Source: a virus (taxonomy: Duplodnaviria; Heunggongvirae; Uroviricota; Caudoviricetes). From it: DNA of 26,414 bases. Under the pieces are notes generated by a model, which saw nothing but the letters and a program-made list of their open reading frames with translations, was not told the DNA's origin and searched no databases. Below, piece by piece: positions 1 through 20,891 of the stretch (position 1 is the stretch's first letter; every line of letters begins with the position of its first letter). The DNA lies in the IMG/VR virus record IMGVR_UViG_2537561991_000013, positions 1-26,414 of that record; one strand, given 5' to 3'. The translations under genes and the position numbers were made by a program.

Positions 1-162
1 GATAGCGGCGCGGGTTTCATCCGCGCCCATTTTCGGCACGCTACCCAGCTTGTCGCCGTTCGCCGGATTGGTGACGTCGATGACCTCGCCATTGTTGGCG
101 TCCAGCCATTCCCCGTTAATCAACGCCTGCTGGCGGAATAAGTTACTGTCGTTAAGTTTCAT
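1..162 (-). CDS. gabD: succinate-semialdehyde dehydrogenase, N-terminal 54 codons only (gene continues past the window start)
   Basis: Reverse-complement translation from ATG at 162 gives MKLNDSNLFRQQALINGEWLDANNGE..., which I recognise as the E. coli GabD N-terminus; lies 22 bp downstream of the lhgO stop as in the csiD-lhgO-gabD operon. Confidence 0.85.
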   Translation of the reverse strand, partial: MKLNDSNLFRQQALINGEWLDANNGEVIDVTNPANGDKLGSVPKMGADETRAAI

Positions 163-184
163 TGTTACGTCCTGTTTTCAAAGG

Positions 185-1453
185 TTATTGATTAAATGCG
201 GCGTGTAAGGCATCCACACTACGTGCCGCTCGCAGCGTGCGTCCGTGGTTACTCTGGCTTGCCAACAGCGTTTGTACCTTGCTGACAATATGCGCACCAA
301 TAGGAATTGCTGATGTCGCTGCCGGGGAGGGCGCATTGCAGGTGTGGATCGTGCGCGGGGTGGTGACAAACAGAAAATCGTCAATCAGCTTGCCGTCCGG
401 CGATACCGCCTGCGCCCGCACACCGGCGGGCCAGGGCTGGAGATCGCTTAACGAAAGCCGGGGACAATACTTTTGCACCAGCCGCAGATAGCCGCTTTTG
501 CACAGCGAGTTTTTCATCTCGCCCAGTCCTGAGCGTAGATGGTTTTGCAGCACCCGGCGAATCCCCGACGAGCCCAAAATTTCCAGCGTGTCGCTAAATG
601 AGAAGTCGCGCTTGCGATAGCCTTCACGTTTGAAAGCCAGCACCGCGTTTGGCCCGACGGTCACGCTGCCGTCGATCATGCGGGTGAGATGCACGCCCAA
701 AAACGGCATTGCTGGGTCGGGGATGGGGTAAATCAGGTGGTTAACAATCTGGTTATGCTCCGGCGCAAGGCGGAAATACTCGCCACGGAACGGGCAGATG
801 ATAAAGCCCGGTTCGAGTCCGAGCATTTTCACCAGCCGGTCAGCCATCAGCCCGGAACAGCTAATCAGCGTCGATGCTTCATATTCACCGCCCTGACTGG
901 TACGTATCACCACGCCGTTTTTATGCTCATTAAGGGCGCTGACTTCGGCGTTATAAATAATCTCGCCGCCTCTGTCCTGAAAGATTTTTGCCATCGCCGC
1001 TGTCACTTCGCGGTAGCTGACAATGCCGCTGGACGGCACAAAAATACCGCCGAGCCCGGTGATATTCGGTTCGCGCTCGCGCAGTTCGTCGGCGTTTAGC
1101 CATTCGCGCTCGATACCGTTCGCCGCTGTGCGTTCCCATAAGGCGCGCATCCGTTCCATTTCGAGCGGAGACGTGGCGACCAGCATCTTGCCGCAGTTGT
1201 CAAAGCGAATGCCGTTTTGATCGCAAAAGGCTTTAGTGGCGCGGTTTCCCGCCAGGCAAAACTGTGCCTTCAGGCTACCGGGCGTGTAATAGACCCCGGC
1301 ATGGATCACGCCGCTGTTGTGGCCCGTCTGGTGACAGGCCGGGCCGGACTCTTTTTCCAGCAACGCAATGCGGGCATCCGGATAGACATCAATCAGTTGC
1401 ATGGCGGTCGACATGCCGATGATGCCGCCGCCAATAATCACAAAATCATACAT
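185..1453 (-). CDS. lhgO: FAD-dependent L-2-hydroxyglutarate oxidase/dehydrogenase
   Basis: ORF 185..1519 trimmed to the internal ATG at 1453 (MYDFVIIGGGIIGMSTAM..., GxGxxG dinucleotide-binding motif at the N-terminus), preceded by GGAATTGAGCGG as RBS; 422 aa; position between csiD and gabD. Confidence 0.85.
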   Translation of the reverse strand: MYDFVIIGGGIIGMSTAMQLIDVYPDARIALLEKESGPACHQTGHNSGVIHAGVYYTPGSLKAQFCLAGNRATKAFCDQNGIRFDNCGKMLVATSPLEMERMRALWERTAANGIEREWLNADELREREPNITGLGGIFVPSSGIVSYREVTAAMAKIFQDRGGEIIYNAEVSALNEHKNGVVIRTSQGGEYEASTLISCSGLMADRLVKMLGLEPGFIICPFRGEYFRLAPEHNQIVNHLIYPIPDPAMPFLGVHLTRMIDGSVTVGPNAVLAFKREGYRKRDFSFSDTLEILGSSGIRRVLQNHLRSGLGEMKNSLCKSGYLRLVQKYCPRLSLSDLQPWPAGVRAQAVSPDGKLIDDFLFVTTPRTIHTCNAPSPAATSAIPIGAHIVSKVQTLLASQSNHGRTLRAARSVDALHAAFNQ

Positions 1454-1472
1454 CCGCTCAATTCCTTTGCGC

Positions 1473-2750
<1,278 letters not shown>

Positions 2751-2772
2751 CTGCCCCGTTTTAGCGGGGCAG
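2751..2772 (-). terminator. hairpin (CTGCCCCG-TTTTAG-CGGGGCAG), probable terminator of the GH13 fragment
   Basis: Perfect 8-bp inverted repeat with a 6-nt loop, 14 bp downstream of the minus-strand stop at 2786; the U-tract after it on the minus strand is imperfect. Confidence 0.4.
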
Positions 2773-2785
2773 ATATAACATTAAA

Positions 2786-3871
2786 TTACAAATAGAGATA
2801 GTTCAGCGGTTCTCCTGTTTTCCCTAAAAGAAGAGCGCTACGCCCAGGAATATTGATATTTAGAGTTCCGCCTCTAAGCATAAATGCTTTACCAGGGGGG
2901 ATAATTTTTCGGGTATTAATAATAATGTTAACGCTATTACTCCCCATGTTTTTATATTTTCCAGGTTGCAATTTGTTAGGCCAGGCACCTTCAACTTCTT
3001 CGTTTCCTTTATTTATTATAATTAGTCCATCATGAGGAGAGTGATTAATGTTCACAGAATCCCCACGACTAAAGGCCAGAACGTTTTTAGTTGCAAATAC
3101 ACCCTCAAATGCGCTCCATATTCCTGCTTTATCTATATATAATGCGTGGAATTCATTGTAGAGCTGCTGATAGGTAGAGCAACCTTTATTAAGCCACGCC
3201 TCATCGCCAACACGCGTCGACCCATCATAATTTTTAATTTCAGTCGTTGATTTTAATACTTGGCCATCCCAGTAAACTAAAGGCCTGCTGAACGGGAGAG
3301 CGGCCATATATGCCATTGCTAATTGTTCATCTTGTTGATGGTTAAATAGAAAGTCATTGAAAATATTGCCATTGTTAGGAAAATCGTGTTTAATGTTAAT
3401 CAATATCCGTCTTTTTGATGGGATGCTTGAGATTGTGGAACCCGGTTTTGATGCAAGGGTTTGGAGATCGCCACCAAATGAAAAAGCTTTTATCGTCTTC
3501 ATGAGCAATGAAAAATCAATGGCGCTTAAATCATCTCTTTCATAAAGCAGCGATGACATTTGTTCTTCATCCAACTGACAAGTTACCAGATATTCCATGT
3601 AATTCATAACGACTTTTTCATGATATTTTGGGTTAAATAAATTAGTATTGTGTAACCGCTCATTATAATTTTTAAGCGGTGGGGTTATTGATCTTTCTAT
3701 TTGTTCATGTTTTGAGTGTTTTGCTGCATCGTAACGTAAACCTCGTACGCCATATTTTCGCATTTCACGAACGTATTGATTTTGCAGCATAATAACCTGG
3801 TCACTTTTGGGGGTTGTTTTAGGCATTCCATTTAAACGCTTTTCTTTTAATGCATGGAGGTTTTCCCATTC
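2786..3871 (-). pseudogene. GH13 (alpha-amylase family) gene fragment, 5-prime end removed at the IS3 boundary (possibly the ygaQ locus)
   Basis: ORF 2786..3826 contains GH13 region II (GLRYDAAKH) about 30 aa from its start and a region-IV-like FLFNHQQD; the frame stays open upstream with no stop until the IS3 left end at 3872, so roughly 150-200 N-terminal codons are missing. Confidence 0.6.
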
Positions 3872-3936
3872 TGATCTTACCCAGCAATAGTGGACACGCG
3901 GCTAAGTGAGTAAACTCTCAGTCAGAGGTGACTCAC

Positions 3937-4236
3937 ATGACAAAAACAGTATCAACCAGTAAAAAACCCCGTAAACAGCATTCGCCTGAATTTCGCAGTG
4001 AAGCCCTGAAGCTTGCTGAACGCATCGGTGTTACTGCCGCAGCCCGTGAACTCAGCCTGTATGAATCACAGCTCTACAACTGGCGCAGTAAACAGCAAAA
4101 TCAGCAGACGTCTTCTGAACGTGAACTGGAGATGTCTACCGAGATTGCACGTCTCAAACGCCAGCTGGCAGAACGGGATGAAGAGCTGGCTATCCTCCAA
4201 AAGGCCGCGACATACTTCGCGAAGCGCCTGAAATGA
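3937..4236 (+). CDS. insE: IS3 OrfA (transposase N-terminal / HTH component)
   Basis: [32 protein letters not shown]... from ATG 3937 with AGAGGTG RBS; the ORF track starts at an upstream GTG at 3928. Confidence 0.85.
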
Positions 4237-5099
4237 AGTATGTCTTTATTGAAAAACATCAGGCTGAGTTCAGCATCAAAGCAATGTGCCGCGTGCTCCG
4301 GGTGGCCCGCAGCGGCTGGTATACGTGGTGTCAGCGGCGGACAAGGATAAGCACGCGTCAGCAGTTCCGCCAACACTGCGACAGCGTTGTCCTCGCGGCT
4401 TTTACCCGGTCAAAACAGCGTTACGGTGCCCCACGCCTGACGGATGAACTGCGTGCTCAGGGTTACCCCTTTAACGTAAAAACCGTGGCGGCAAGCCTGC
4501 GCCGTCAGGGACTGAGGGCAAAGGCCTCCCGGAAGTTCAGCCCGGTCAGCTACCGCGCACACGGCCTGCCTGTGTCAGAAAATCTGTTGGAGCAGGATTT
4601 TTACGCCAGTGGCCCGAACCAGAAGTGGGCAGGAGACATCACGTACTTACGTACAGATGAAGGCTGGCTGTATCTGGCAGTGGTCATTGACCTGTGGTCA
4701 CGTGCCGTTATTGGCTGGTCAATGTCGCCACGCATGACGGCGCAACTGGCCTGCGATGCCCTGCAGATGGCGCTGTGGCGGCGTAAGAGGCCCCGGAACG
4801 TTATCGTTCACACGGACCGTGGAGGCCAGTACTGTTCAGCAGATTATCAGGCGCAACTGAAGCGGCATAATCTGCGTGGAAGTATGAGCGCAAAAGGTTG
4901 CTGCTACGATAATGCCTGCGTGGAAAGCTTCTTTCATTCGCTGAAAGTGGAATGTATCCATGGAGAACACTTTATCAGCCGGGAAATAATGCGGGCAACG
5001 GTGTTTAATTATATCGAATGTGATTACAATCGGTGGCGGCGGCACAGTTGGTGTGGCGGCCTCAGTCCGGAACAATTTGAAAACAAGAACCTCGCTTAG
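4233..5099 (+). CDS. insF: IS3 OrfB (DDE transposase catalytic component; normally made as an OrfAB fusion by -1 frameshifting)
   Basis: 288-aa ORF recognised as IS3 InsF; overlaps the orfA stop in ATGA arrangement. Confidence 0.85.
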
Positions 5100-5250
5100 G
5101 CCTGTGTCCATATTACGTGGGTAGGATCACGCAGGGGTCGGCCCATTTGAGCTTCAGATAGGAACGTTTGAATTCCTTTCACAAAATACATCACATACTG
5201 AACGTGAACATTCCCACTTTGATCTTAAGGCCAAAAAGTATGCAGGACTA

Positions 5251-6969
5251 ATGATTTTTAGGGATAGCTTGAGAGTATTACCTTATGGTCGAGTAGATAA
5301 TGATTTCTTCCAGATAGAAGAAAGACGTTCATGGAATGCAGGGCGATATTATTGGTCTAATAGAAGGATTTTTGGTTATATTGGAATTACTCAATCCAGT
5401 AATAAAGAGCTGAAAGATAAGTCGGGGAGAGAGGGATTCATAAGAAACCAGGCTGCAAGAGAACTGAAAACTATTATATCTAATTTGTTAACTGAACTTG
5501 CTGATAGATTTTTTGGTTCACGTTCTGATGACCGTAAAGAGCTTTTAGAACAAGTTAAGCGTGAAAAAGAGTTAAGAAAATCTGCTCAACAACAAGCTCG
5601 AAAATCAACACAAAAAAGTTTTTCAGAAGCTTTGAAGAATCAGACACCAGTTCTTGATGCTTCCTTGGAGGCTGTTAAAAGGCTGAAAACTAAGCTTGAT
5701 AAAACTGATGGTTCGTTAGATTTAAACTATCTTAAAATTATAGACAGTGATCTTACAAACTTAGATGCGTTGCGCAGTGAAATTAAAACGCCTATCAAAC
5801 CTCCAAAACTTGGAATGTATGAAGAGAAATATAGAGACTACAGAGATAAATTTAATGAGTTCTCTGCGTATATTCTACAAATGAAGTTAGCAATTAATAA
5901 ACTTGATTCTGAATTAAATAAACTTGAGCCTTCATTGTCAGCGAAAAATCACCTTGAAAAAAATCAAGGTATTATTAATTCTAAACTAACTAAGTTTAAT
6001 AACACGATAGAGGAGAAGATACATTCTCTTTTAAAAAAATGGGCCGATGAAATAAAGGTTGATCGAAGTGATTATTATGCTAAAACTATATCAGTTGTTG
6101 ATTCAATAGATAATGATTCACAAATTGAAAATGTGTTTAATTTGCTCGATAGTTTATATGTTGAGTCAGTTGATACCCTAACTTTCAAATATCAATCAAT
6201 AATAAAAGGTCTCGATAGATTATTTGAAGGTATAAACTTAGATTCAGCATTCTCATTATCTGAAGAAGAACGCTCATATTTTGAAGAAAAAGCTAAAAGT
6301 TTAAACGCGCTTGCACAGTTAGGTATTAGTGTTGAGATAATATCTCATGAACTTGAAGAAATGGATTCTATGGTAACCAGAGGACTAAACTCTCTTCCTA
6401 CTTCTGTAAAAGAACACCCTGGTTTTTCATTGGCGTTAAATGCTCACAGATCGCTTACTCAACAAATACGTTTCTTATCACCTTTGAAAATATCAGGTTA
6501 TCAATCCAGGCAGAGAATAACTGGAAAAAATATCATGGATTATGTCCTGAAGTTCTTTGGGGAGCGTTTCGAACGGCAACGAATAACTATTGAATTTAGT
6601 GAAGAGTTTAAGCAAATCGCAATAACAGATATACCATCAAGGATCTATCCTGTTTTTACTAATATTATCAACAATGCAATGTATTGGGTCAGTCTGTCAA
6701 ATAATAGGCTCATAAAGATTGGTTTTGTGAATTCTTTGGTTATCATAGCAAATTCTGGTCCGGCAATTGATACCGATGATATCCCGCGACTATTTGAACT
6801 ATTTTATAGCAAAAGAGCAAATGGACATGGGGTAGGTCTGTATCTATGTCGAGAAAACCTTGCTGTTGCACATCATAAAATATGGTATTCAGAACCTGAT
6901 GAAGGCGATAACTATTTAATAAAAGATGACGCTAATTTTGTGATCCAGTTCAATGGAGTGGAGTTCTAA
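5251..6969 (+). CDS. cytoplasmic histidine-kinase-like protein: coiled-coil-rich N-region, DHp-like H-box and HATPase_c catalytic domain; frame is open upstream to the IS3 end (5130), so the true 5-prime end is probably deleted
   Basis: C-terminal motifs: H-box-like VEIISHELEEMDSMV, N-box YPVFTNIINNAMYW, G1-like IIANSGPAIDTDD, F-box RLFELFY, G2 GHGVGLYLCRENLA. No hydrophobic TM segment. Visibly AT-rich; weak SD before the ATG at 5251; no in-frame stop between 5130 and 5251. Confidence 0.7.
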   Translation: MIFRDSLRVLPYGRVDNDFFQIEERRSWNAGRYYWSNRRIFGYIGITQSSNKELKDKSGREGFIRNQAARELKTIISNLLTELADRFFGSRSDDRKELLEQVKREKELRKSAQQQARKSTQKSFSEALKNQTPVLDASLEAVKRLKTKLDKTDGSLDLNYLKIIDSDLTNLDALRSEIKTPIKPPKLGMYEEKYRDYRDKFNEFSAYILQMKLAINKLDSELNKLEPSLSAKNHLEKNQGIINSKLTKFNNTIEEKIHSLLKKWADEIKVDRSDYYAKTISVVDSIDNDSQIENVFNLLDSLYVESVDTLTFKYQSIIKGLDRLFEGINLDSAFSLSEEERSYFEEKAKSLNALAQLGISVEIISHELEEMDSMVTRGLNSLPTSVKEHPGFSLALNAHRSLTQQIRFLSPLKISGYQSRQRITGKNIMDYVLKFFGERFERQRITIEFSEEFKQIAITDIPSRIYPVFTNIINNAMYWVSLSNNRLIKIGFVNSLVIIANSGPAIDTDDIPRLFELFYSKRANGHGVGLYLCRENLAVAHHKIWYSEPDEGDNYLIKDDANFVIQFNGVEF

Positions 6970-6970
6970 T

Positions 6971-8719
6971 ATGACAGTGGCAAATTATAATTCTCTTGTC
7001 CAGAAAACTTTCTGCGAAAATGCAATTCGTTCCGTTGTCATGATTGATGACGATTTTCTGACGTATTCTGAATCAATCAGGGCGTTGAATAACGAAGTTG
7101 ATTTAGACTACAACAAAATTGACTCATCTAAACGAGCCGCTACTCTTGAGAGCTTTTTTCAATCTAAAAATATGATTTGTGATGTTGACAATGGTTCTGT
7201 TAATTTCGATGTGGATCGGATTAGAAAATCAGATCTTATTATTGTAGATTATCATCTTGATAATAATGCACCTGATAAAACACTTAAACTATTACAAGAT
7301 TTGAAAGACTCCGATCATTTAAATATGATTGTAATATATACTAGAGAGAATTTAGAAACGGTTTGGATGCAGATATCATCGACTCTCAAAGGTGCTCTGG
7401 ATATCAACAGCTTGATCATTGACTACGATAATGAAGATGTCCAAAGTTATTGGGAAGACGTTGTATTACCGAACTTAAATGATAATGGTAATAAAGCTCT
7501 CACAAGAGATGAAACAATAGCCTATATTAAAGACAGTAAGCCTTGTAGAAGAATTAAAAGATTAATACATGATGATGCTGTGTTGGAGGAACAAAAGGAT
7601 AAAAACTTCATTGCAAAAATGATTGCAGAATATGCTGTGTCTAGAAATGCAATTATTTCTAGCAACACATCTGGCAATGTCATTCGGGGTGATGAAAGCG
7701 GAGTAAAATGGATTCAATGTGGTAATATCTTTGTCTCCCTATTTCATAAGGTTCAAGATGATCATGAAAACGATGGAGATAGGATTTGGCAAACTCTCAA
7801 TGATTCTCTCATTGAATGGAAACCATCTTATTATCAGTTAATAAAATCTGAAATTCAGAATGCAATCGAAGCTGAGGCTTTATCTTTTGTAAATCATTTG
7901 GCTAACGATCATTACGGTCAAGCTGCGTGGTTAAATGAGATATTAAAATCAGACTCGCCTGATATTAGATGTAGAAATATTGACTTTGTATTTGGTAATT
8001 TATCAGAAGAGCTTTATCAAAGACTTAAAAATAATAATACGCTGGATGAATTTATCAAAAGTGTTTTTGATAGCTATTCAAATGAATACGCTAACAGCGG
8101 AGTTGCTGCATTGCTCCAATATTGCTCTTCAAAAATGGATCTGCCATCAAATAATGATACTTATCACGAAATGTATCATGCTTTAAATATGAATTTGTCT
8201 TCAAAGAATTTTGAAGATGGTCATATTTCTACTGGCACTATTTTCTTTGATACAGAGTCGAACAAATGGTATTTATGTGTATCTGCGGCATGTGATTTGG
8301 TTCCTACTCAGGGTAACGACCCTCACCATGTAAGATTAAGTCCGCACAGGCTCATTAAAGTTCTGGAGCTTTTTAACGCCAGTCAGAGTAAAGCATTGCC
8401 ATTTGCTGAACATTCGAAATATATATATGTAATGCATAAAAATCAAAGAAAATATCTCTCTATTTTCGAAGGGGATAAAACGCTTCCTGTTGTTGATTAT
8501 ATGGTGGTGTTGAATCATGGAACAACAGTTGATGGCGAAGAAAAAAATATTATTTCTGCCGTGTTTTTAAGTAATATGGATGGCAACGTGCAAAATGTTC
8601 CTGTCCGACTCAAACTTAAATCTCAACTGAGAACTGGTTATGCAGAAAGATATCAGGCTATAGCGTCTCAGTATAGCTCAAGGATTGGTGTGGATTATGT
8701 ATCAATGATGCTACCATAA
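6971..8719 (+). CDS. receiver (REC)-like N-terminal domain fused to an unassigned ~430-aa C-terminal domain
   Basis: ATG at 6971 is 1 nt after the kinase stop, with GGAGTGGAG as SD (the ORF track starts at 6953). N-terminus has REC-like beta1 VVMIDDD, beta3 DLIIVDYHLD, beta4 MIVIYT; the rest has no motif I can assign. AT-rich like the upstream gene. Confidence 0.55.
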   Translation: MTVANYNSLVQKTFCENAIRSVVMIDDDFLTYSESIRALNNEVDLDYNKIDSSKRAATLESFFQSKNMICDVDNGSVNFDVDRIRKSDLIIVDYHLDNNAPDKTLKLLQDLKDSDHLNMIVIYTRENLETVWMQISSTLKGALDINSLIIDYDNEDVQSYWEDVVLPNLNDNGNKALTRDETIAYIKDSKPCRRIKRLIHDDAVLEEQKDKNFIAKMIAEYAVSRNAIISSNTSGNVIRGDESGVKWIQCGNIFVSLFHKVQDDHENDGDRIWQTLNDSLIEWKPSYYQLIKSEIQNAIEAEALSFVNHLANDHYGQAAWLNEILKSDSPDIRCRNIDFVFGNLSEELYQRLKNNNTLDEFIKSVFDSYSNEYANSGVAALLQYCSSKMDLPSNNDTYHEMYHALNMNLSSKNFEDGHISTGTIFFDTESNKWYLCVSAACDLVPTQGNDPHHVRLSPHRLIKVLELFNASQSKALPFAEHSKYIYVMHKNQRKYLSIFEGDKTLPVVDYMVVLNHGTTVDGEEKNIISAVFLSNMDGNVQNVPVRLKLKSQLRTGYAERYQAIASQYSSRIGVDYVSMMLP

Positions 8720-8789
8720 TTATTATATTTTAGGCGTGGTGATTTTTTTCGCCATGCCTATTTTATATTTATCATCACAATGATGTTGT

Positions 8790-9101
8790 TTATTTTTGTT
8801 TAAGTCTTCTAAGCTTCATGCATTCTAATGAGAATAATAATAGAGTTGTGCTGTATATAAAGCCAGAGTTAGTTAATAACTTTAAATTTAATGCTTCAGG
8901 ATTTTCACTGAGAAAGTGAAAGGCATAAACTAAGTATACAGCTAAAGTAGCCGTTCCAATTGTTGGTCCAATATCGCCTTGATCATGAGGTTCAAGGTTT
9001 ACATTGAACTTGAAGATTAGCCATTCAAATCCCCAAGTAAAAAAAACAACTAATATCATGGCTGCGAATAATTTCGCGATGTTATCTGCTGATGGATTCA
9101 T
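8790..9101 (-). CDS. small hydrophobic protein (about 3 predicted TM segments), function unknown
   Basis: 103-aa ORF with three hydrophobic stretches (LFAAMILVVFFTWGF..., IGTATLAVYLVYAFHFL, FIYSTTLLLFSL); convergent with the kinase/receiver operon, AT-rich. Confidence 0.4.
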   Translation of the reverse strand: MNPSADNIAKLFAAMILVVFFTWGFEWLIFKFNVNLEPHDQGDIGPTIGTATLAVYLVYAFHFLSENPEALNLKLLTNSGFIYSTTLLLFSLECMKLRRLKQK

Positions 9102-9243
9102 CAGAACAGATTGTTTCTGAAAAAATTCACAAAGTGAGAGTCCGAAAAAAATAAAAAAAGTGGTCTGGAACTAAATTTTTCAAAAACTTTGAATAGGGTT
9201 TCCATTTTCTTTACCTTCAGGATTATATTAGCTATTCTGATAC

Positions 9244-10473
9244 TTAGGCTACCAGAGCATTTGATCTTTGAGCTTGAACGTAATCACTCCACCATTGCAT
9301 CAAACTCTGTCGCTCTATCAGATATTCTGCACGATTGTATGCTGCGATAATTTCATCTTTTTTCGAGTGGGCAAGCGCTGCCTCAAGAACTTCAGCTCTG
9401 AATTTACCAGACTCCTCTGCCGCTGTTCGTGCAATAGAACGCATACCGTGAGCTACAAGCTCGCCTCCGAACCCCATTCGGATGATAGCTGCGTTGGCTG
9501 TTTGTTCATGCATATGATTAAGAGGCGCTTTTATGCTGGGGAAAACCCATTCTCTATGCCCACTTATTGATTTCATTAATTCAAGGATGCGCAAAGCTTC
9601 TTTACTCAAAGGAACTTTGTGAAGCTTTTTCATTTTCATGAAATCAGCAGGAATGTTCCAAATGCTGTTGGTTGTATCAATATCAGACCACCTTGCGCGA
9701 ACGGCTTCACCCGGACGAACCCATGTCAACAATTGCCATTCAATTAGCATACGTGTTTCCAACCGGATTGACGCATTCGTCAAAGATTCCATAAACCTTG
9801 GCAATTCGCTTGGGGGAAGGGCAGGCATATTTTGCTTTTTTGGTTTACTGAATCTTTGACCAAGGTTGTCAGCCGGGTTGAACTCAATAAGTTCTTCAGT
9901 AGCTGCCCACCGGAAGATTTCATTCAGACGTGAAATGATACGGCGTAGAGTTTCCAATACGCCTCGTTGCTCAATAGGATCAAGGTGTTGTTTTAAGAGC
10001 TTAGGTCGGATCTCATTGATAGGGACATTACCCAGACCGGGAAAGACATTTCTCTCTAAGCTGCGCCAGATGTCTGCTGCATGGTCTTGTGAGATACCTG
10101 ATGTCTTTACCTTCTCATCTAACCATTTCCGCGCTACGGCTTGGAGAGTGTGCTCAGTAGCACTCTTTAATGCCTTCGCCTTATCGTTGTTATGGATTTG
10201 GGGATCAACACCATTTGCCAGAAAGGAGAGATATTCATCACGTAAGGCTCTGGCTCTTGCAAGGGTAAGGTGAGGATATGTCCCAAGGCTCATTTTGGTT
10301 CTTTTCTTGCTCACTGGTACTGCATACCTGAAATACCAATTTTTCTTGCCTCCTTTCGCCAAAGGAGCGATTCGTAGAATCAGACCATCACCGTCAAACA
10401 AGTTGATTTCTTTATCGGCTGGCTTGGTGCTTTTGATTTCAGTGTCAGTGAGCTTCTTAGCGATTTTTGCCAT
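9244..10473 (-). CDS. P4-type tyrosine integrase (CP4-57 IntA-like)
   Basis: ORF 9244..10515; likely start at ATG 10473 (MAKIAKKLTDTEIK...) with GAGGG RBS; C-terminal tyrosine-recombinase motifs (HGMRS...LAH...AAYNRAEY); sits 165 bp from the ssrA 3-prime fragment in the same orientation, as ssrA-intA does in K-12. Confidence 0.85.
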   Translation of the reverse strand: MAKIAKKLTDTEIKSTKPADKEINLFDGDGLILRIAPLAKGGKKNWYFRYAVPVSKKRTKMSLGTYPHLTLARARALRDEYLSFLANGVDPQIHNNDKAKALKSATEHTLQAVARKWLDEKVKTSGISQDHAADIWRSLERNVFPGLGNVPINEIRPKLLKQHLDPIEQRGVLETLRRIISRLNEIFRWAATEELIEFNPADNLGQRFSKPKKQNMPALPPSELPRFMESLTNASIRLETRMLIEWQLLTWVRPGEAVRARWSDIDTTNSIWNIPADFMKMKKLHKVPLSKEALRILELMKSISGHREWVFPSIKAPLNHMHEQTANAAIIRMGFGGELVAHGMRSIARTAAEESGKFRAEVLEAALAHSKKDEIIAAYNRAEYLIERQSLMQWWSDYVQAQRSNALVA

Positions 10474-10575
10474 TTTGGGACCCTCGGTTTTTGGACCCTT
10501 CTTAGTGGGTCCCATTCAGGGTGCCATAACTCGTAGTTCTCAGCAATTCTCACTGGACGACAATAGACGTAAAAA

Positions 10576-10608
10576 AGCCCGCAGAGCTTGTGCTGTGTGG
10601 GCTTAGTA
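10576..10608 (-). terminator. weak hairpin with U-tract between the att fragment and the integrase
   Basis: AGCCCGCA...TGTGGGCT inverted repeat (one mismatch) flanked by an A6 run on the plus strand (U-run on the minus strand). Confidence 0.3.
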
Positions 10609-10638
10609 GACTTCATTGAACTTCAAACAACTAAAAAG

Positions 10639-10674
10639 TGGTGGAGCTGGCGGGAGTTGAACCCGTATCCGAAA
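10639..10674 (-). other. partial copy of the 3-prime end of ssrA (tmRNA): att-type junction, not a functional tmRNA gene
   Basis: TGGTGGAGCTGGCGGGAGTTGAACCCGtaTCCGAAA is the reverse complement of the tmRNA 3-prime end (...GGACGCGGGTTCAACTCCCGCCAGCTCCACCA) with 2 mismatches; the match stops after ~36 nt and the rest of ssrA is absent. Confidence 0.75.
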
Positions 10675-10868
10675 AATTCTTAACCAATTGAATATTAATG
10701 ATTTTTCTAATTTAAAATACCTCACGTGCATTTTACGTGCATATTGTAGTACCTCTAACGTCCTGATTCTGTCCAACATTTTGAAGTGTTTAGGCGCCAC
10801 TGGGGCGGTGATTAGCGCTGTTTTGTGCTGTTCATAGCACTTCAAGACTATTCAATTCAGAGCAATCG

Positions 10869-10897
10869 TTGAAGAATTACCCGTAAGGTAATATCAT
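10869..10897 (+). promoter_or_regulatory. sigma-70-like promoter candidate (TTGAAG - 17 bp - TATCAT)
   Basis: -35 TTGAAG at 10869..10874 and -10 TATCAT at 10892..10897 with 17-bp spacing, upstream of the hairpin at 10932 and the ORF at 11009. Confidence 0.35.
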
Positions 10898-10931
10898 ACT
10901 ATTTAGGTAACTGCGGTTATCACCATCAAGG

Positions 10932-10967
10932 GCCACTGATGACGCTGTTATCATCAGTGGCTTTTTG
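10932..10967 (+). terminator. strong intrinsic-terminator-like hairpin (11-bp perfect stem GCCACTGATGA / TCATCAGTGGC, 8-nt loop, TTTTT tail)
   Basis: Perfect inverted repeat 10932..10942 / 10951..10961 followed by TTTTTG; about 40 nt upstream of the RBS of the 11009 ORF, so it may be an attenuator or the end of a ~60-nt RNA. Confidence 0.5.
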
Positions 10968-10970
10968 TAC

Positions 10971-10992
10971 CTTCACTGCACAGCCAGTGAAG
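10971..10992 (+). promoter_or_regulatory. 8-bp perfect inverted repeat (CTTCACTG-cacagc-CAGTGAAG) just upstream of the RBS of the 11009 ORF
   Basis: Inverted repeat ends 4 nt before GAGGAG (10997..11002); candidate operator or translational control hairpin. Confidence 0.35.
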
Positions 10993-11008
10993 TGTTGAGG
11001 AGACTAGC

Positions 11009-11350
11009 ATGAGAACAGTAGCGAGAAGATCGATACAGACGATTGAGCGTCGGACTCAACTCGTCAGTTCTTTTGTTGACTCAAACACAGCAAACGAGTT
11101 CTTCGTGAGAAGACTGAGTGATCGTGTCTCCCCGGCACGTCAGCTGTTTATTGTGACATTGAACAATGAGGTTCGTGACGGTGACGTGATCCCGTTCGCT
11201 GAGATCGCCATGAACAAAGAAAAATTGCGCTATGTTGTGAAGCCAGCAGATCAGTATCCTCAGTATGTAAGCAGTAATCTGCTGAAGAAAATTGAAGCGG
11301 CAATTGCTCTATACATGCAGAAGAACTACAGGGAAATTAACTACCATTAA
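11009..11350 (+). CDS. hypothetical protein (113 aa), first gene of a two-gene cassette at the int-proximal end of the prophage
   Basis: ORF with GAGGAG RBS at 6-nt spacing; no recognisable motif; followed 11 bp later by a second ORF. Confidence 0.5.
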   Translation: MRTVARRSIQTIERRTQLVSSFVDSNTANEFFVRRLSDRVSPARQLFIVTLNNEVRDGDVIPFAEIAMNKEKLRYVVKPADQYPQYVSSNLLKKIEAAIALYMQKNYREINYH

Positions 11351-11361
11351 AAGGTTGCTGA

Positions 11362-12129
11362 ATGGCTCCTGCGTTAATACCTTCATATAACAAGGACTTG
11401 AACATTACGCCATTTGGCGAAAAACGTCTTATTGAGTCATTCTATTTTTTCACTGCCGAGGCTGGCTTACTGAGGGCTGATGAGTACATTGTCAGTTCTG
11501 GTGAGTTTCAGTACTACTTGGATGTGTATCAACTGGGATGTTCCACCGACGACTTTTTTTTAGACTATGGCAGTGACCTTCTTGATTCGAAGGTTCCAAT
11601 GCAGGATCTGGTCAATACCCTCTTGGGTCTTGATATGGTAGACGATAACAAAACGATAAGAATAGGTCGTATACAGTTCAACGACTTTAATTTTATCGAA
11701 GAGAACGGTCAGATGATGACCGGAAAGCAAGTGAAAAGCGCTGTTATCGCACAGGATTTCCAATCAGCAGGTTTGGCGCGTGAGATCTATAAAATGCTTG
11801 CGCGAAAGCATGAGTTTCTCATCTGCGATAACATTCAAAGTATTGCCGGTGGTGCTCTTTGGGCTAGTAGCATCATTCGAATTGCCGAGGTACGGATCTA
11901 CAATTCACGCACGAAGAAATTTATGGACATACTTGGTCCAGGTGCGCGTGGCGTTTCAGGTACTTTGCCATGGAGTGCGAATGATCTGTCTGTAGATGAG
12001 ATTGTTCGCTGGGGTCGTGCGTATGATGATGAAAACTGTTGTCGTCACATTGTACATGTTATCTGTAAGGACCGACTCATTGACGATCAATTTCATGATT
12101 ATGTTTCGATAGGTGGCGCGACAGAATAA
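11362..12129 (+). CDS. hypothetical protein (255 aa), second gene of the cassette
   Basis: ORF closely following the 113-aa gene; no recognisable motif; ends at a bidirectional terminator shared with the integrase. Confidence 0.5.
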   Translation: MAPALIPSYNKDLNITPFGEKRLIESFYFFTAEAGLLRADEYIVSSGEFQYYLDVYQLGCSTDDFFLDYGSDLLDSKVPMQDLVNTLLGLDMVDDNKTIRIGRIQFNDFNFIEENGQMMTGKQVKSAVIAQDFQSAGLAREIYKMLARKHEFLICDNIQSIAGGALWASSIIRIAEVRIYNSRTKKFMDILGPGARGVSGTLPWSANDLSVDEIVRWGRAYDDENCCRHIVHVICKDRLIDDQFHDYVSIGGATE

Positions 12130-12141
12130 CCATCAAAAAGA

Positions 12142-12164
12142 CCCGGCATTTGCCGGGTTTTTTC
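12142..12164. terminator. bidirectional intrinsic terminator (CCCGGC-ATTT-GCCGGG flanked by A-run and T-run)
   Basis: 6-bp GC stem with AAAAAG upstream and TTTTTTC downstream; sits between the convergent 11362..12129 gene and the integrase. Confidence 0.6.
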
Positions 12165-12170
12165 TTCAAA

Positions 12171-13349
12171 TCACTTCTTCATTCCAGATTCCATTGCGGT
12201 TTTCCCGTCGTATTCAGCCAGGTATTTACCGTAATTGCGGAACAGCATTTCCGGCCCCTTATGCCCCATCTGCCCGGCAAGCCAGAAAAGGTTTACACCC
12301 TGGCTAATGTGTCTGGTGGCGAATGTGTGGCGCGTCTGGTACGGGTTACGGTAGCGCACACCAGCTTTTTTCAGGGTCGGCACCCATGCTTTTTTACGGA
12401 TAGCGTCGGCGTTCGTCCAGGGATCTCCCGTTTTCGGATCGCTGAATATGAACTCACTTTTCATAAAGGTGTATTGCTTCTGCGCCTGCAGGGCCGCCAG
12501 CGCCTCACTGTTCAGCTCCACCTTACGGGTACCGGCTTTTGTCTTGGTGCCTTTAAGTACCCCTACGACACTGGCCGCCTGTATGTGCGCTGTATTACCT
12601 ATAAAGTCGATATCGGTCCAACGTAATGCGCATAGCTCAGAGCTGCGTAGCCCTGTATTGAAGGCGAAGCGGAACAGATTCTGCCATTCCTGATACTTGC
12701 AGTGCTGATATATGGCACTGGTTTCCGCAGGCGCAAACGGATCAACTTCGTAATCGTCGGCGTTCGGTTTACTGTCGACCACGTGATACCGGCTGGCGCT
12801 GACAAGAGTTACCGGGTTAATAGTCAACAGGCCATCAGTTACAGCCTCATCAATGGCGCTGCGCAGAAATGACAGGTTATTCCTGATTGTTTTCAGCTTA
12901 GTTTTTCGGCTGGCTATCCAATTTTTTAGTACCGCAGGCGTCAATTCTGTTACATGTAGTTTATGTAGTTCTGATAGTGCTGATAGACATTTTTCGTAAC
13001 CGCCAATGGTTGACGGCGACAGATTGCGGTTCATGCAAATTTTCAGGTATTCATCAAGATAGGACTTAATATTTTTGGTTTTCTTTACTACACCGAATAA
13101 CTCCAGTTTTTTGGAACTGGGGAAATATTTCGCATATTCAAACGTTCCGCTGGCGATCTGATTTTGTATCTCCCCTAGCAGGCGCTCAGCATATTTAATA
13201 CCACGTGTATTTGCCTCAAGCCGAGACAGGGGCTCCCTGCAAAGAACCCCTTTATATGTGAAAGTGATAACTAGTGTTGAAGCAGTTTTATGCTTACGAA
13301 TAGTTACTCCTCTTGGCAGAGATAATAATCCTTGTTCTTTCTTGCCCAT
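12171..13349 (-). CDS. lambdoid-phage tyrosine integrase (not lambda Int)
   Basis: 392-aa ORF from ATG 13349; C-terminal catalytic motifs RHTFATRH...GHKGPEMLFRNYGKY; an overlapping excisionase-like gene lies upstream. Confidence 0.85.
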   Translation of the reverse strand: MGKKEQGLLSLPRGVTIRKHKTASTLVITFTYKGVLCREPLSRLEANTRGIKYAERLLGEIQNQIASGTFEYAKYFPSSKKLELFGVVKKTKNIKSYLDEYLKICMNRNLSPSTIGGYEKCLSALSELHKLHVTELTPAVLKNWIASRKTKLKTIRNNLSFLRSAIDEAVTDGLLTINPVTLVSASRYHVVDSKPNADDYEVDPFAPAETSAIYQHCKYQEWQNLFRFAFNTGLRSSELCALRWTDIDFIGNTAHIQAASVVGVLKGTKTKAGTRKVELNSEALAALQAQKQYTFMKSEFIFSDPKTGDPWTNADAIRKKAWVPTLKKAGVRYRNPYQTRHTFATRHISQGVNLFWLAGQMGHKGPEMLFRNYGKYLAEYDGKTAMESGMKK

Positions 13350-13513
13350 TTTGAAACCTCTATTAAGTCGACCCAGCGTTCTTTAACTCCGTCGACTTTT
13401 AATACATGAACCCCTTCTTTCCATATTCCTCTTTGTATCCGTTTGTTAACGGCATCAACCGTTTCTCCCGCGTCGCGGCAGTAGGTTGATATAGGCACGC
13501 AATCCAGCCCCAT
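13304..13513 (-). CDS. excisionase-like small DNA-binding protein
   Basis: 69-aa ORF overlapping the integrase start by 46 bp (typical xis-int arrangement); basic, with W/K-rich C-terminus. Confidence 0.5.
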   Translation of the reverse strand: MGLDCVPISTYCRDAGETVDAVNKRIQRGIWKEGVHVLKVDGVKERWVDLIEVSKWARKNKDYYLCQEE

Positions 13514-13671
13514 ACATCACCTCACATAACACTCAGCCCACGGCAGTGGCACCACACGTCAAACATTCGCTTCACAACTTCACGACAGTAGAAGCCGTCA
13601 ACATCTCGCGTCAGGTTATAGCGATTGCCGTAACGCTGGTGGACCCATTGTTCAAATGCTTTATTCATTCT

Positions 13672-13950
13672 TTACTTCCTTTTTATGGCTCGTAATTTTT
13701 TCAGGTGCTTTTCCTGCTCAGTGTCCGCGAGAATTTTGCGGTACTCCTGGTGGTCAATATGTTCGAACAGGCAGTTTAACTCACCAATGCGTACCCGCCC
13801 GGATCGTCCGTCCATCCGTCGAAAGAACACTGAGTGCTCAGTGATGCGAGTAATCACCACGGGGTATCCGGCTCTGTCCGTGTATATCTGACCGCGTTGA
13901 ATCAAAGCGAACATGTGGTTATCCCCATCGACAAATTGAGAACACAACAA
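13672..13950 (-). CDS. hypothetical small phage protein
   Basis: 92-aa ORF in the leftward early operon; no motif assigned; start codon uncertain. Confidence 0.4.
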   Translation of the reverse strand: MLCSQFVDGDNHMFALIQRGQIYTDRAGYPVVITRITEHSVFFRRMDGRSGRVRIGELNCLFEHIDHQEYRKILADTEQEKHLKKLRAIKRK

Positions 13951-14037
13951 ACGCTACTGCGAATACCACCCCCAGAGTTACGATTGCATCAGGCCAGCTC
14001 ATTGATTCACCTCCTGCGGCGTCCTGGTATTCGATTT

Positions 14038-14606
14038 TCATTCCGGATGCTCCTGAGCCACATTGAAATCGCCATGATCACGACAAGGCATCACAACAAA
14101 TTCAGGATTGCCATACATTGAGTTGATGATGGAATCAAACTGAATTCTGACCGCTTGCCCGTCACCGGAGGAACGTAACTGGACGGGAATAAATTTACGC
14201 TCACGACCAAACATCTTCTCTGGATAACTCAGGTAACCCGCCTGGATCACCGGGTGTGTACAGAGGTCAAATTTTTTCGGAATGATGCGTTCCAAATCCG
14301 GAAAACAACCGTCCACCAATTTAATGCCGGTAATGGACAGCCGGCGCTGAAACTGGTCGCGATGAACAGGATCGGCTCTTTACTAAAAATCAGCTCTGTC
14401 GTTTCGGCTTTGGCCGGGACGCCACCTTCGAACTGGACAATGATGTTTTTCTTCGTCCGGATGCCGTGAGTCATGCGCAGTGCTACGAAACCATTGGTTG
14501 CCTCAATATGTTTTGGCGTGATGTGAAGACCGTTCAGGTAATAACGAACGTCGTTTTTAGCAGCGCACACCAGAGCGGCGCGAATAAGTTTTGACTGGAT
14601 GATCAT
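14038..14606 (-). pseudogene. DNA polymerase III beta-clamp (DnaN)-like gene split into two overlapping frames (frameshift or authentic disruption)
   Basis: ORF 14247..14606 has KNDVRYYLNGLHI...EATNGFVALRM (compare DnaN QDVRYYLNGMLFE...VATDGHRLAV); ORF 14038..14319 in another frame has VDGCFPDLERIIPKK (compare DnaN VDGRFPDYRRVLPKN). Together they are about half the length of cellular DnaN. Confidence 0.5.
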
Positions 14607-15352
14607 GCTTTATCCTCCCATCCGATTACCTGAAAAAGCCCCATCTTCGGGTGATACCAGCGTGTGCCGCGTGGTTCAGCCTCTGACATCATTTGGTGGA
14701 ACGCCGCCATAAATGTCTCAAGCTCGACGACAGCCCTGCGAGACAACAGACCGTCCGGAGTCATAAATTCGTGCGTGTCGGTAGGGATGTGGTAGGCGTT
14801 GACCAGATTCCGACACTTGGCGTCACTCATTCCGCTTTTGGCTACCACCTGGCGGTAACCGACATATCCGGTGCGCATTGTGCCGCGTTTGATGTTCTCC
14901 ACAGCTTTGGTGACCGTTTCGATCTTCTCTTCAACATGACTCAGGCGCTTCTGCTGGCGAACGGCATCGGCGGCCATTGCAGCGATCATCTCCATTTCCG
15001 TCAGCGGCGCGTGAGTTCGGAAATAGCTGTTAACCAGTTCGCGCTGAACCTGCCATGCAAGAGCATCGTTAAAAGGCTTCGTCAACATCAGGTAACCAGA
15101 CTCGAAAAGAATGATCCCTTTGGCAGTTCGCGCGGCAAAGGCATCAGAAAGTGACTCCGTACGTATTACGTCCGCAGTCATTTCAAGAAAATCCACCCCT
15201 TCGATAAAGTGAGAACGGTTGCGGTTAAACGCAGCACGGGCGGTACCTTCCGGGCGCTGGTGGACGTCATCAATTATTGCAAATGTCACAACACGCTGAC
15301 CGCGATATTCGATTACCGGAAACTGTTTGTTGTTGATGGTTACAATATTCAT
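14603..15352 (-). CDS. phage ORF6N-domain protein (antirepressor-like)
   Basis: Start at ATG 15352 (MNIVTINNKQF...) with GGAGAT RBS; N-terminal segment VVTFAIIDDVHQRPEGTARAAFNRNRSHFIEGVDFLEMT resembles the ORF6N signature (RN...F.EG.DF..LT); the domain assignment is from memory. Confidence 0.5.
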   Translation of the reverse strand: MNIVTINNKQFPVIEYRGQRVVTFAIIDDVHQRPEGTARAAFNRNRSHFIEGVDFLEMTADVIRTESLSDAFAARTAKGIILFESGYLMLTKPFNDALAWQVQRELVNSYFRTHAPLTEMEMIAAMAADAVRQQKRLSHVEEKIETVTKAVENIKRGTMRTGYVGYRQVVAKSGMSDAKCRNLVNAYHIPTDTHEFMTPDGLLSRRAVVELETFMAAFHQMMSEAEPRGTRWYHPKMGLFQVIGWEDKA

Positions 15353-15395
15353 TTTTATCTCCAGACAGCCCGGCGTGTAATACCGGGCATATGTA

Positions 15396-16223
15396 TTACT
15401 TAACCTGAATAAATGGTGTGTTGGCACCGCTGGTCATGTATTGCGGCAGTGTACCGTTCCACTTGTTGATGGCTTCCAGCTCCATAACACCGGGGTTCTG
15501 GCGCAGAGCTTCACCGCGTAAACGAATAGCATCGGCTTCGGCCTGGGCTTTTGTGCGAATCGCATCTGCCTGTCCGGCAGCTTCCGCGCGCAACATGTTG
15601 GCTTCCGCTTCGCGCTGTTTTACTTCCTGCTCGCGTTGCAGGGTTTTCTGGTTCGCCGTGACTTTGGCATTAATGCTGTCGATAACAGTAGGTGGGTACT
15701 CCGGCTTACCCACATATGAGAGGCTCATTACCTGAATACCGATGGGCGTCATTTCTTCCTGAATGTCTTTAAGAGCTGCATCCAGCAGCTCAGACTTGCC
15801 GCCGTCGATAAATTTGTCGGTGGTCATTTTGCTGGCCAGTCGGTTGAGTGCGTCGGCTATCTTCTGGCGCAGGTCGGTGTCGGTAATGTCGTCCACGCCT
15901 TTGCGGTAGGTCTGAAAGACTGTGGTAACTTTGGATGGATCAACTTTGTAGGCCACGCCGATGTGATAGCCGATGGTTGTACCGTCACTCATCTGGAAAC
16001 TGAATGGATCATCGTAGGTCTTCATCTGCTTAAAGGTCGGGAAGATGTAAACCTCAGTGTTCCATCCCGTCCAGTAGCGCCCAACACCGACCACTTCACC
16101 GACGCCTTTATCGTCGCCCAGTTTGTTTACTTTGATGCCCACATTACCAGGCTCAACGCGATCGCAACCGACAAGGCCAATGGTCGGCAGAACAAGGGCT
16201 AAAGCAAAAAGTAATTTTTTCAT
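15396..16223 (-). CDS. SPFH/band-7 (prohibitin-like) lipoprotein
   Basis: Signal peptide with lipobox (MKKLLFALALVLPTIGLVGC), SPFH-like core and an Ala/Glu-rich coiled-coil C-terminus (AEANMLRAEAAGQADAIRTKAQAEADAIRL). Confidence 0.6.
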   Translation of the reverse strand: MKKLLFALALVLPTIGLVGCDRVEPGNVGIKVNKLGDDKGVGEVVGVGRYWTGWNTEVYIFPTFKQMKTYDDPFSFQMSDGTTIGYHIGVAYKVDPSKVTTVFQTYRKGVDDITDTDLRQKIADALNRLASKMTTDKFIDGGKSELLDAALKDIQEEMTPIGIQVMSLSYVGKPEYPPTVIDSINAKVTANQKTLQREQEVKQREAEANMLRAEAAGQADAIRTKAQAEADAIRLRGEALRQNPGVMELEAINKWNGTLPQYMTSGANTPFIQVK

Positions 16224-16408
16224 CTTTTATCCTTAGAAAAAGAAAGACCCTTATAAATGGCATAAATGCAGGGCGGGGTCAGACACGCCAGAGCAAAGCC
16301 AGAAATCACTGCTACCGTATCCTTCATTGATATGAGGGCCGGAACGATTAATCCGTAAATACATGTGATAATTGCCAGTGATATAACTATTCTGAAATAA
16401 ATGTTCAT
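16220..16408 (-). CDS. small membrane protein (2 predicted TM), translationally coupled to the SPFH gene
   Basis: 62-aa hydrophobic ORF whose stop overlaps the SPFH start by 4 nt. Confidence 0.45.
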   Translation of the reverse strand: MNIYFRIVISLAIITCIYGLIVPALISMKDTVAVISGFALACLTPPCIYAIYKGLSFSKDKR

Positions 16409-16468
16409 GGTCCTCCTGATGTATTCGGCTTGCCTTATTTAATTGCGTCATGGTTAATTTCGTTTACG

Positions 16469-16861
16469 TCAGAATGGTTTTGTTGCCATCAGTTCGTAAT
16501 ATCCGGCGCTCCATGTGTCATATTTTCTGAACCATTTTTCTGTATACTGTTTCCTGGCGATGAGTCTGCGCAGTCGTCTGATTGTTCGCTGGTGTGCGCG
16601 GGTATACTCTGTGGTTGATTCTCCACGTTTCCATATCTCATTCCTGTTGAAGATAAAACGCTTGTCAGGATAGCGTTGTCGGAATCCTGAACGTTCAAAA
16701 GCGCGGGTGGTCATAAAGAATGCCAGGTAACGAATTGCCGTTTTTCGGGTGAGGCATTTTTTTGTTCTTCCGTGGCGTGTTACAAAAAATAACGGGCCGA
16801 CGGGTGTATCATGTTTCTGTAATGCCTGGTCAATGGTGCTGGCGGTGCGGTTGTCGATCAT
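16469..16861 (-). CDS. hypothetical basic phage protein
   Basis: 130-aa ORF, Arg/Lys-rich; no motif assigned. Confidence 0.4.
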   Translation of the reverse strand: MIDNRTASTIDQALQKHDTPVGPLFFVTRHGRTKKCLTRKTAIRYLAFFMTTRAFERSGFRQRYPDKRFIFNRNEIWKRGESTTEYTRAHQRTIRRLRRLIARKQYTEKWFRKYDTWSAGYYELMATKPF

Positions 16862-20112: not shown

Positions 20113-20891
20113 AGGTACCCGAACAGAAGCAGGCTTAAAGGTGCCTGTTCAGGTTGGCAACCAACTGACCCAACTCCTCATGTGTACTAGGGAAGTAGTA
20201 CGTTTTTATGGGGAAGAGGGTAAGGGGGGTAAGGGGGGATTGGGTGTTGGGGCAGGAATAGGGTCTTTTCCAACAGGAGAGATCCATTGGTTAAGTAGAT
20301 CACTGTCTTAAGGGCGCAATTTAAAAAAACGCCCGTATCAGCAAGGTAGTACAAAGCGCTCAGGCGCTGAGAAACGAAAAGGGTTCTTCCTGGAAGAGTG
20401 ATTGAAGAGGTGTTCAGAGGTAAATGCACTGAATGTTATTCACGAACATATGAAGTGAATGCCACGCATGAAGAATTCACCGTTGAGTGTGTGATGAATA
20501 CTGATAAATGCCGAATGGTATCCGCTGAATTACAGCCAGTGTGTTGAGCGACCTTATTATCCATGCGCGGTATTGTCGCCGTATTCCTGCATTAACAGAG
20601 ACCGCAGCCCGACAGGGAGACTCCTCTGCGAGAGTGTGCGGGGATAATCAAAAACGATACACACCGGGGTTTACCGCGTAAACGGAGCGCGGCGTTGTCC
20701 CCTCATGGTCGCTGGTCCGGTGCGATGGTGGAAGAAACCGGACGATGTGTTACCTCGCAAACTCTGTTATGTCATGTGTCTGATTTGTGATTTAAGTCGG
20801 ATAATTGTCATTGCCATTAAGCAGAGGATTGATGACCGACAGGGCTGCATTGTTAGAATAAGACTTATTCTTATCTATGCCGGGAATAAAA

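Follow-up and report, generated by a model that had tools for sequence, protein, structure and literature searches.

A 36-nt remnant of the tmRNA gene ssrA, at positions 10639–10674 (minus strand) of the 26,414-nt stretch of viral DNA analysed here (the window), marks the junction of two mobile elements stacked at ssrA. With high confidence, we read it as the integrase-proximal hybrid attachment (att) site of an ssrA-specific lambdoid prophage, lying beside an older P4-type island. An earlier note on this DNA had given the range 10576–10930. Besides the fragment and the adjoining attachment-site arm (to about 10790), that range takes in terminator and spacer sequence on the left and, on the right, the upstream region of a pair of cargo genes (about 10790–11008).

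The ssrA fragment and its strand-exchange interval

Read on the minus strand, window positions 10674 to 10639 give TTTCGGATACGGGTTCAACTCCCGCCAGCTCCACCA, to be compared with TTTCGGACGCGGGTTCAACTCCCGCCAGCTCCACCA for the final 36 nt (nt 328–363) of ssrA in E. coli K-12. The alignment yields 34 identities in 36 positions. Both mismatches lie side by side, at window 10667 (ssrA nt 335, C>T) and 10666 (nt 336, G>A), and are followed by an exact block of 27 nt (window 10639–10665, ssrA nt 337–363) that spans the T stem-loop, the 3′ strand of the acceptor and the terminal CCA. A 26-mer from the ssrA 3′ end occurs once in the window at up to three mismatches and in none of 100 shuffles, and a minus-strand search of the whole window found no second copy of the final 14–20 nt at up to two mismatches. 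The earlier note had described the last ~36 nt of tmRNA with two mismatches, and this is what we find, the rest of tmRNA being absent from the window. ARAGORN detected no tmRNA in the window, and no Rfam model matched the fragment region at its gathering score; a permissive Rfam scan returned a partial tmRNA match of 18.6 bits (gathering score 47) to the T-arm and acceptor end, over 10639–10730. Positions 10639–10674 thus do not provide the full-length tRNA-like domain and tag reading frame of a functional tmRNA gene.

Two open reading frames at this locus were set aside. The 80-aa frame at 10603–10845 (minus strand, TTG start), which runs over the fragment and the arm, is a mechanical, spurious call and no gene, and the 103-aa frame at 10295–10606 (plus strand, TTG start), which runs over the terminator and the 5′ end of the left-hand integrase gene, is antisense to that annotated gene. 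RefSeq annotation of the identical sequence in genome PV16-126 places nothing under 10545–10790.

Relatives of the window establish what lies on either side of such a fragment, both in a free phage and after integration. The free phage LMessi (PP925823.1) has a contiguous attP, its two arms joined around an ssrA-like core in the order int stop codon, an arm homologous to window 10666–10790 with ATGCACTTAAAATGCACTTG, then CGGACACGGGTTCAACTCCCGCCAGCTCCACCA, CTTTTGATAGGACTGC..., and an arm with ATGCACGTGAAATGCACGTG. PV16-126 (O103:H2) matches window 1–14029 at 98.8% and 10545–10790 at 100%. From its ssrA end it carries smpB, an intact 363-nt ssrA, a distal arm of the LMessi type, a DinI-like gene and espK, espN and nleL, and onward the tail, head and early genes; int and two ORFs come next, before the fragment and the island with the P4-type integrase. 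In EPEC strain E110019, which is 99.9% identical over window 10639–16787, the prophage is present without the island: an intact ssrA stands at the far end, with DinI, espM2 and espW as its neighbours, and the native chromosomal flank ATCATGATTGG directly follows the fragment (ATCATGATTGGACGG...ypjA). In K-12 this flank comes after psaA, the 14-nt repeat that bounds CP4-57 on the right. PV16-126 and E110019 therefore both have the core at the two prophage ends and an intact ssrA at one of them. The effector set of E110019 equals that of Sp17 in PMC2323221, and Sp17 is located at ssrA (PMC8190617).

The records of PhiR12_1 to PhiR12_5, whose hosts are K-12 MG1655 or E. coli C according to GenBank, as lysogens, are bounded by the ssrA core and 99% identical in DNA to the window over the att and int region; the terminus of PhiR12_1 consists of the ssrA 3′ end and the distal arm. 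The tandem junction of fragment and island is found in 89 of 5426 complete genomes, O26:H11 11368 among them. We also observed that the phi467 record (LN997803.1) runs, at 1–2500, past the att end into a neighbouring island with intA and a hypothetical gene, and that the PhiR12_5 record (PV340554.1) does the same at 1–1555, into an IS and a truncated P4-type int. Since both reach into a bacterial island, the ends as deposited differ from the real termini of these phages. In phi467 the junction is also short of 3 nt (CAC) at the CCA.

These relatives bear out the proposal that the fragment is an att-derived remnant, which finds support in the LMessi attP, in the junctions of integrated relatives and in the phage-specific mismatches. 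The two mismatches, real as first described, acquire a different meaning. The G>A change at nt 336 is shared by LMessi and phi467, so the ~10 upstream nt (328–336) are a phage imitation of ssrA and not decayed host sequence. The intact ssrA at the far end carries the host bases (..ACGC GGG..) and the fragment the phage bases (..ATAC GGG..), which puts the crossover 3′ of nt 336. On the other side, the sequences of E110019, the E. coli C lysogen (PhiR12_5) and K-12 part directly after the CCA. Together these two limits place the exchange inside 10639–10665, the 27-nt host-identical block with the phage-private bases 10666 and 10667 directly 5′ of it. Within this interval, the crossover most likely falls at the T-loop (TTCAACT), between the symmetric halves of the T stem, a placement suggested by the scheme of tRNA/tmRNA integration sublocations ("Sublocations II and III") as it is cited in PMC3146451.

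Attachment-site arm, integrase and the variable slot

The int-proximal attP arm (10666–10790, minus strand), which includes the phage imitation of ssrA nt 328–336, aligns with LMessi, phi467 and PhiR12_5. Its GC content is 30.4%, against 46.5% for the whole window, in keeping with the AT-rich arm noted earlier. The arm holds two direct copies of the 8-mer ACGTGCAT, at 10724–10731 and 10735–10742, with an 11-bp spacing and TTT between them; the earlier note had suggested this ACGTGCAT-TTT-ACGTGCAT arrangement as a possible arm site. Exactly two copies of the 8-mer exist in the window, by itself an unremarkable number that 28 of 100 shuffles attain. The repeat is significant because it recurs on the other att arm. 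The 20-mer ATGCACGTAAAATGCACGTG, which contains the tandem ATGCACGT repeats 11 bp apart, sits 58 nt from the core (10742..10723, minus strand), and PV16-126 and PhiR12_1 have an identical 20-mer in the same orientation on the distal arm, 92 nt beyond the CCA; the longest common substring of shuffled arms has a mean of 7.6 nt and a maximum of 14. Besides those on the two arms, the 52.8-kb PV16-126 prophage has no other tandem copies of the repeat. In LMessi and phi467 the repeat has diverged in its flanks, but its ATGCAC cores are unchanged in sequence and spacing. Two IHF-like matches with one mismatch each, at 10681–10693 and 10756–10768, are both kept in LMessi.

Judged by these sequence features, the tandem ATGCACGT repeats at 10723–10742 (minus strand) are probably arm-type sites for the N-terminal domain of the prophage integrase, and the suggestion of an arm site thereby gains weight as a prediction. 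The assignment is credible because that integrase has an arm-binding domain. Encoded at 12171–13349 on the minus strand and transcribed towards the att site, it combines Pfam Arm-DNA-bind_2 (PF12167) with the catalytic Phage_integrase domain (PF00589), belongs to PHROG 1 and has a distant match to structures of lambda Int; its coding region is 99% identical in DNA to that of the PhiR12 phages. A putative xis lies at 13304–13513. We regard it as the putative recombinase of attP and attB at the ssrA core, which would bind the arm repeats. A search for a binding or recombination experiment on this integrase found none.

Between arm and int lies a cargo insert of ~1.4 kb (10791–12170, plus strand) with no counterpart in LMessi. 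It encodes two ORFs, at 11009–11350 (113 aa) and 11362–12129 (255 aa), which belong to PHROG 2594 and 3307, both of unknown function, and which had no match in Pfam, NCBIfam, PADLOC or PDB. A promoter scan marks a promoter-like site at 10869–10897 (plus strand). A hairpin at 10932–10961 (plus strand), with a perfect 11-bp stem followed by TTTTT, stands between this site and the ORF at 11009 and could be a leader/attenuator or a terminator. At the other end, a terminator scan places a terminator hairpin at 12141–12158 (minus strand), just past the int stop codon. The slot itself is variable among relatives: O26:H11 11368 has a DUF4760 gene there, phi467 a hypothetical gene of 909 nt that matches it in length and position, and in LMessi the slot is empty, int abutting the arm. 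It is tempting to combine the two observations, with the 11-bp-phased ATGCAC(G/T)T repeats as the arm-site code of PF12167-type ssrA-specific integrases and the slot between arm and int as a hot spot for phage-exclusion cargo; we offer this joint proposal tentatively, and on balance doubt that both parts hold.

Order of events at ssrA

On the left of the junction stands a P4-type tyrosine integrase gene (9244–10473, minus strand), similar to CP4-57 IntA. The ORF called mechanically reaches 10515, and RefSeq starts the gene at 10473; the protein is WP_001341819.1 in relatives. Pfam Arm-DNA-bind_3, Phage_int_M and Phage_integrase are recognized together with NCBIfam PRK09692 at its cutoff, and a full-length comparison with K-12 IntA gives 48% identity. 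The gene follows the ssrA 3′ end directly, with a gap of 165 nt from the CCA to the start codon, and is co-oriented with the fragment in the manner of ssrA and intA in K-12. The identity and orientation previously proposed for this integrase are thus both upheld. In the gap lies a Rho-independent terminator (hairpin and T-run at about 10571–10604, minus strand; terminator scan) that is homologous to the hairpin after K-12 ssrA and forms the paired region in an alignment to the end of the Rfam IsrM model. This terminator follows ssrA in the island-only state and was displaced along with the fragment.

The rest of the island (3928–9101), identified with Pfam and with RefSeq annotation of the identical arrangement in relatives, is decayed. 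It comprises a hypothetical gene (8790–9101, minus strand), a gene for a 588-aa receiver-domain protein (Response_reg_2, PF19192; 6953–8719), an overlapping gene for a 572-aa HATPase_c/HEF_HK protein (5251–6969) and an IS3 (3928–5099) that abuts a truncated ygaQ. PADLOC gave no match for the kinase and receiver pair (5251–8719), which adjoins ssrA in both island-bearing genomes that we inspected (PV16-126 and 503025). Further leftward, beyond ygaQ, come glaH and lhgO, so that the flank is the ssrA-to-glaH region of E. coli. The ygaQ remnant within 2786–5099 has no N-terminus. Missing at this scar are the distal part of the island, its ssrA repeat, the native flank ATCATGATTGG and the ypjA-to-ileY segment of K-12, and no attR of the island, as a second copy of the ssrA tail, was found on the minus strand of the window. 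The IS3/ygaQ scar is common to prophage-free strains. The island is a remnant of a CP4-57-like element that lost its distal end by an IS3-associated deletion.

On the right, the proposed int-proximal end of a lambdoid prophage is confirmed by the Arm-DNA-bind_2 integrase and by the genes beyond it, which encode a cI-like repressor, a YdaS/Cro-like protein, the Nu1 and A terminase and a lambda-type portal. Compared with E110019, ~9.5 kb is deleted at 20402/20403; replication genes (helicase, toprim), Q, esterase, holin and lysozyme are gone, and the immunity region is joined straight to the post-lysis region. After 20742 the sequence switches from the E110019 type to a lambda-type module (TonB-like, Nu1, A, portal). 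This late module is common to thousands of other prophages, the portal protein being identical in 7,953 collection blocks. With such a deletion and a different head module, the prophage is defective and mosaic. A 46-mer across the deletion junction had no match in genome_contigs or metagenome_contigs and one in IMG/VR, and no record was found for the ORF that spans the junction. The same join occurs in IMGVR_UViG_2681813321_000026 at 99.96%, a record that diverges left of 13538. When 25 kb of the window was compared by megablast with 5,426 complete E. coli genomes, at most 54% was found in one place.

The state of the site before the prophage arrived can be recovered from other strains. A 702-nt query built in silico from K-12 ssrA and the reverse complement of window 10638–10300 represents the pre-insertion junction. 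At least 25 complete genomes contain it in full, at 100% identity along the 702 nt, and a match to 80% or more of its length occurs in 962 of 5426 genomes. The earlier note had proposed a comparison with empty ssrA sites as a check; in other strains the ssrA–island site is indeed found unoccupied. Genome 503025 illustrates this state, with smpB, ssrA, WP_001341819.1, the hypothetical gene, receiver, kinase, IS3, truncated ygaQ and glaH in sequence. Its colinearity with the window (1–10674, 98.8%) breaks off precisely at 10674, the position of ssrA nt 328. From the presence of the decayed island on an intact ssrA in prophage-free strains, it follows that the distal end, the flank and attR had been lost before the prophage arrived. 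The order put forward earlier, the kinase/receiver island first and the prophage second, is accordingly the parsimonious one; it is not proven, because precise excision of a prophage would also yield the island-only state.

We envision that integration would proceed as follows. The phage attP would consist of the AT-rich arm beside int, a 36–44-nt imitation of the tmRNA 3′ end with private bases at nt 335 and 336, and a second arm, and the integrase would exchange strands within the 27-nt exact block. At the far end, host ssrA nt 1–336 would be completed by the phage copy of the remaining 3′ end to a full gene. At the int-proximal end, the phage imitation would be joined to the 3′ end that the host gene originally had and to the sequence downstream of it, here the terminator and P4-type integrase of the already decayed CP4-57-like island. 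The far end would then be expected to show a 363-nt ssrA ending in ...GGACGCGGGTTCAACTCCCGCCAGCTCCACCA, followed by CTTTTGATAGGACTGC and an arm with ATGCACGT(A/G)AAATGCACGTG, and to carry the repeat CGGGTTCAACTCCCGCCAGCTCCACCA. Regeneration of ssrA at the far end, also part of the original proposal, is seen directly in PV16-126 and E110019. The window ends inside the prophage head genes and has an internal deletion, and its own far end we therefore infer from these relatives.

Several other histories could lead to a similar arrangement. Had the phage entered ssrA first and the P4-type island later used the leftover 3′ fragment as a secondary attB, the final junction sequence would be indistinguishable, and such a use is conceivable, P4-type elements requiring a short 3′ core alone (psaA in K-12 is 14 nt). 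This order nevertheless appears quite improbable, as the identical decayed island sits directly on an intact ssrA in many prophage-free genomes and the prophages at the site differ among strains while the island does not; moreover, the island has no attR, so no recent movement of it would be possible. Somewhat less improbable, though still unlikely, is an inversion or translocation by recombination with another lambdoid prophage, after which the intact ssrA would no longer stand at the far end. The switch after 20742 to a Nu1/A/portal module widespread in other prophages would fit such an event, and the deletion at 20402/20403 does show past rearrangement. Against this, lambdoid mosaicism is normal and arises without chromosomal rearrangement, the deletion is simple and internal, and the same early–late join recurs at 99.96% in UViG 2681813321_000026.

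The fragment itself has also been considered under two readings that do without a hybrid att site. As an IsrM-like small RNA formed by the ssrA end and the island terminator (10571–10648, minus strand), it would account for an Rfam IsrM match (RF02763) of 53 bits with E = 1e-13. Only the first ~20 and last ~57 of the 329 model positions align, however, the score falls far below the gathering score of 376, so that the model is not matched as a whole, and a promoter scan found no promoter-like site on the minus strand. We take STM2763 to be an integrase, and the equivalence of the IsrM junction with the junction of ssrA fragment and integrase rests on that assignment. Salmonella IsrM lies between STM2762 and STM2763, upstream of the latter (PMC2330248). 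It would there be at an equivalent junction, which would explain the similarity. An IsrM-like RNA is in our view very improbable here. We give practically no credence to a decayed ssrA pseudogene or a chance match that owes nothing to site-specific recombination. The fragment is short, and no tmRNA model scores over threshold on it; yet shuffles produced no match, an integrase gene stands on each side, the same sequence and flanks form a contiguous attP in LMessi, and the mismatches are phage-specific and not random decay. The shuffles, the LMessi attP, the phage-private bases and the pre-insertion site effectively refute this reading. We thus rejected a functional tmRNA, an IsrM gene and a chance match, as well as a coding function for the ORF at 10603–10845, and retain the int-proximal hybrid att site as the reading of the fragment.

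Comparison with known ssrA-associated elements

That ssrA is a hot spot of integration, where elements stack in tandem and leave repeats of its 3′ end, has been described since the early 2000s. Phages and islands are documented to integrate there, leaving direct repeats of the 3′ end and tandem arrays (PMC3146451, PMC2323221, PMC8190617, PMC8112680). Stx phages occupy ssrA in O111 (PMC2323221), tandem prophages occur in STEC and EPEC (PMC8112680), and arrays marked by ssrA 3′-end repeats are reported in PMC3146451 and by Williams 2003 as cited in PMC10107115. The arrangement in the window is ordinary and already known in kind, and nothing suggests a new kind of system. What the analysis contributes is a boundary between two mobile elements fixed at 10639–10665. 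It also exposes the ORF at 10603–10845 as spurious and the phi467 and PhiR12_5 records as overrunning the true att end. It further provides a worked example of how stacked ssrA elements can be ordered in time from the pre-insertion sites of other strains, and a testable candidate arm-site sequence for this integrase family.

The closest counterparts are the ssrA prophages of EHEC and EPEC (Sp17 of O157 Sakai and those of E110019 and O26:H11 11368, with PhiR12_1 to PhiR12_5), which share with the window the insertion into the ssrA 3′ end and an int that faces the fragment; PhiR12 and E110019 share 99% DNA identity with it in the integrase and att region. The relatives carry type III secretion effector cargo at their ssrA-proximal end, and the corresponding far end of the window prophage lies outside the window. 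The window prophage differs from them in having no replication, Q or lysis genes and in its lambda-type head module. Between Salmonella IsrM and the window, homology covers the 5′ and 3′ ends of the RNA, which correspond to the ssrA end and to the terminator that precedes a P4-type integrase; the central ~250 nt of IsrM are missing here, so the window locus is not an IsrM gene.

The island, for its part, resembles CP4-57 of K-12 in its P4-type integrase directly downstream of ssrA, co-oriented with it and preceded by a homologous terminator, and CP4-57 likewise has an ssrA 3′-end repeat at an element boundary. It departs from CP4-57 in an integrase that is 48% identical, in its kinase/receiver cargo and in the deletion of the psaA equivalent together with the native flank, and its integrase faces the fragment, whereas intA of CP4-57 faces an intact ssrA. 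Lambda attP, built of a core, the arm-type sites P1, P2 and P′1–3 and IHF sites, offers a parallel for the prophage att site, with a separate arm-binding N-domain in the integrase, a short core flanked by AT-rich arms, helically phased tandem repeats on both arms and IHF-like sites (in the window with one mismatch, binding being predicted); the window differs in its arm domain (PF12167), in the sequence of the repeat and in the placement of its core inside an RNA gene, with a copy that restores the gene. In the islands of Dehalococcoides, as here, the point of insertion can be recognized from private substitutions directly upstream of the repeat; those islands use serine recombinases, whereas the junction in the window joins two families of tyrosine integrases, P4-type and lambdoid.
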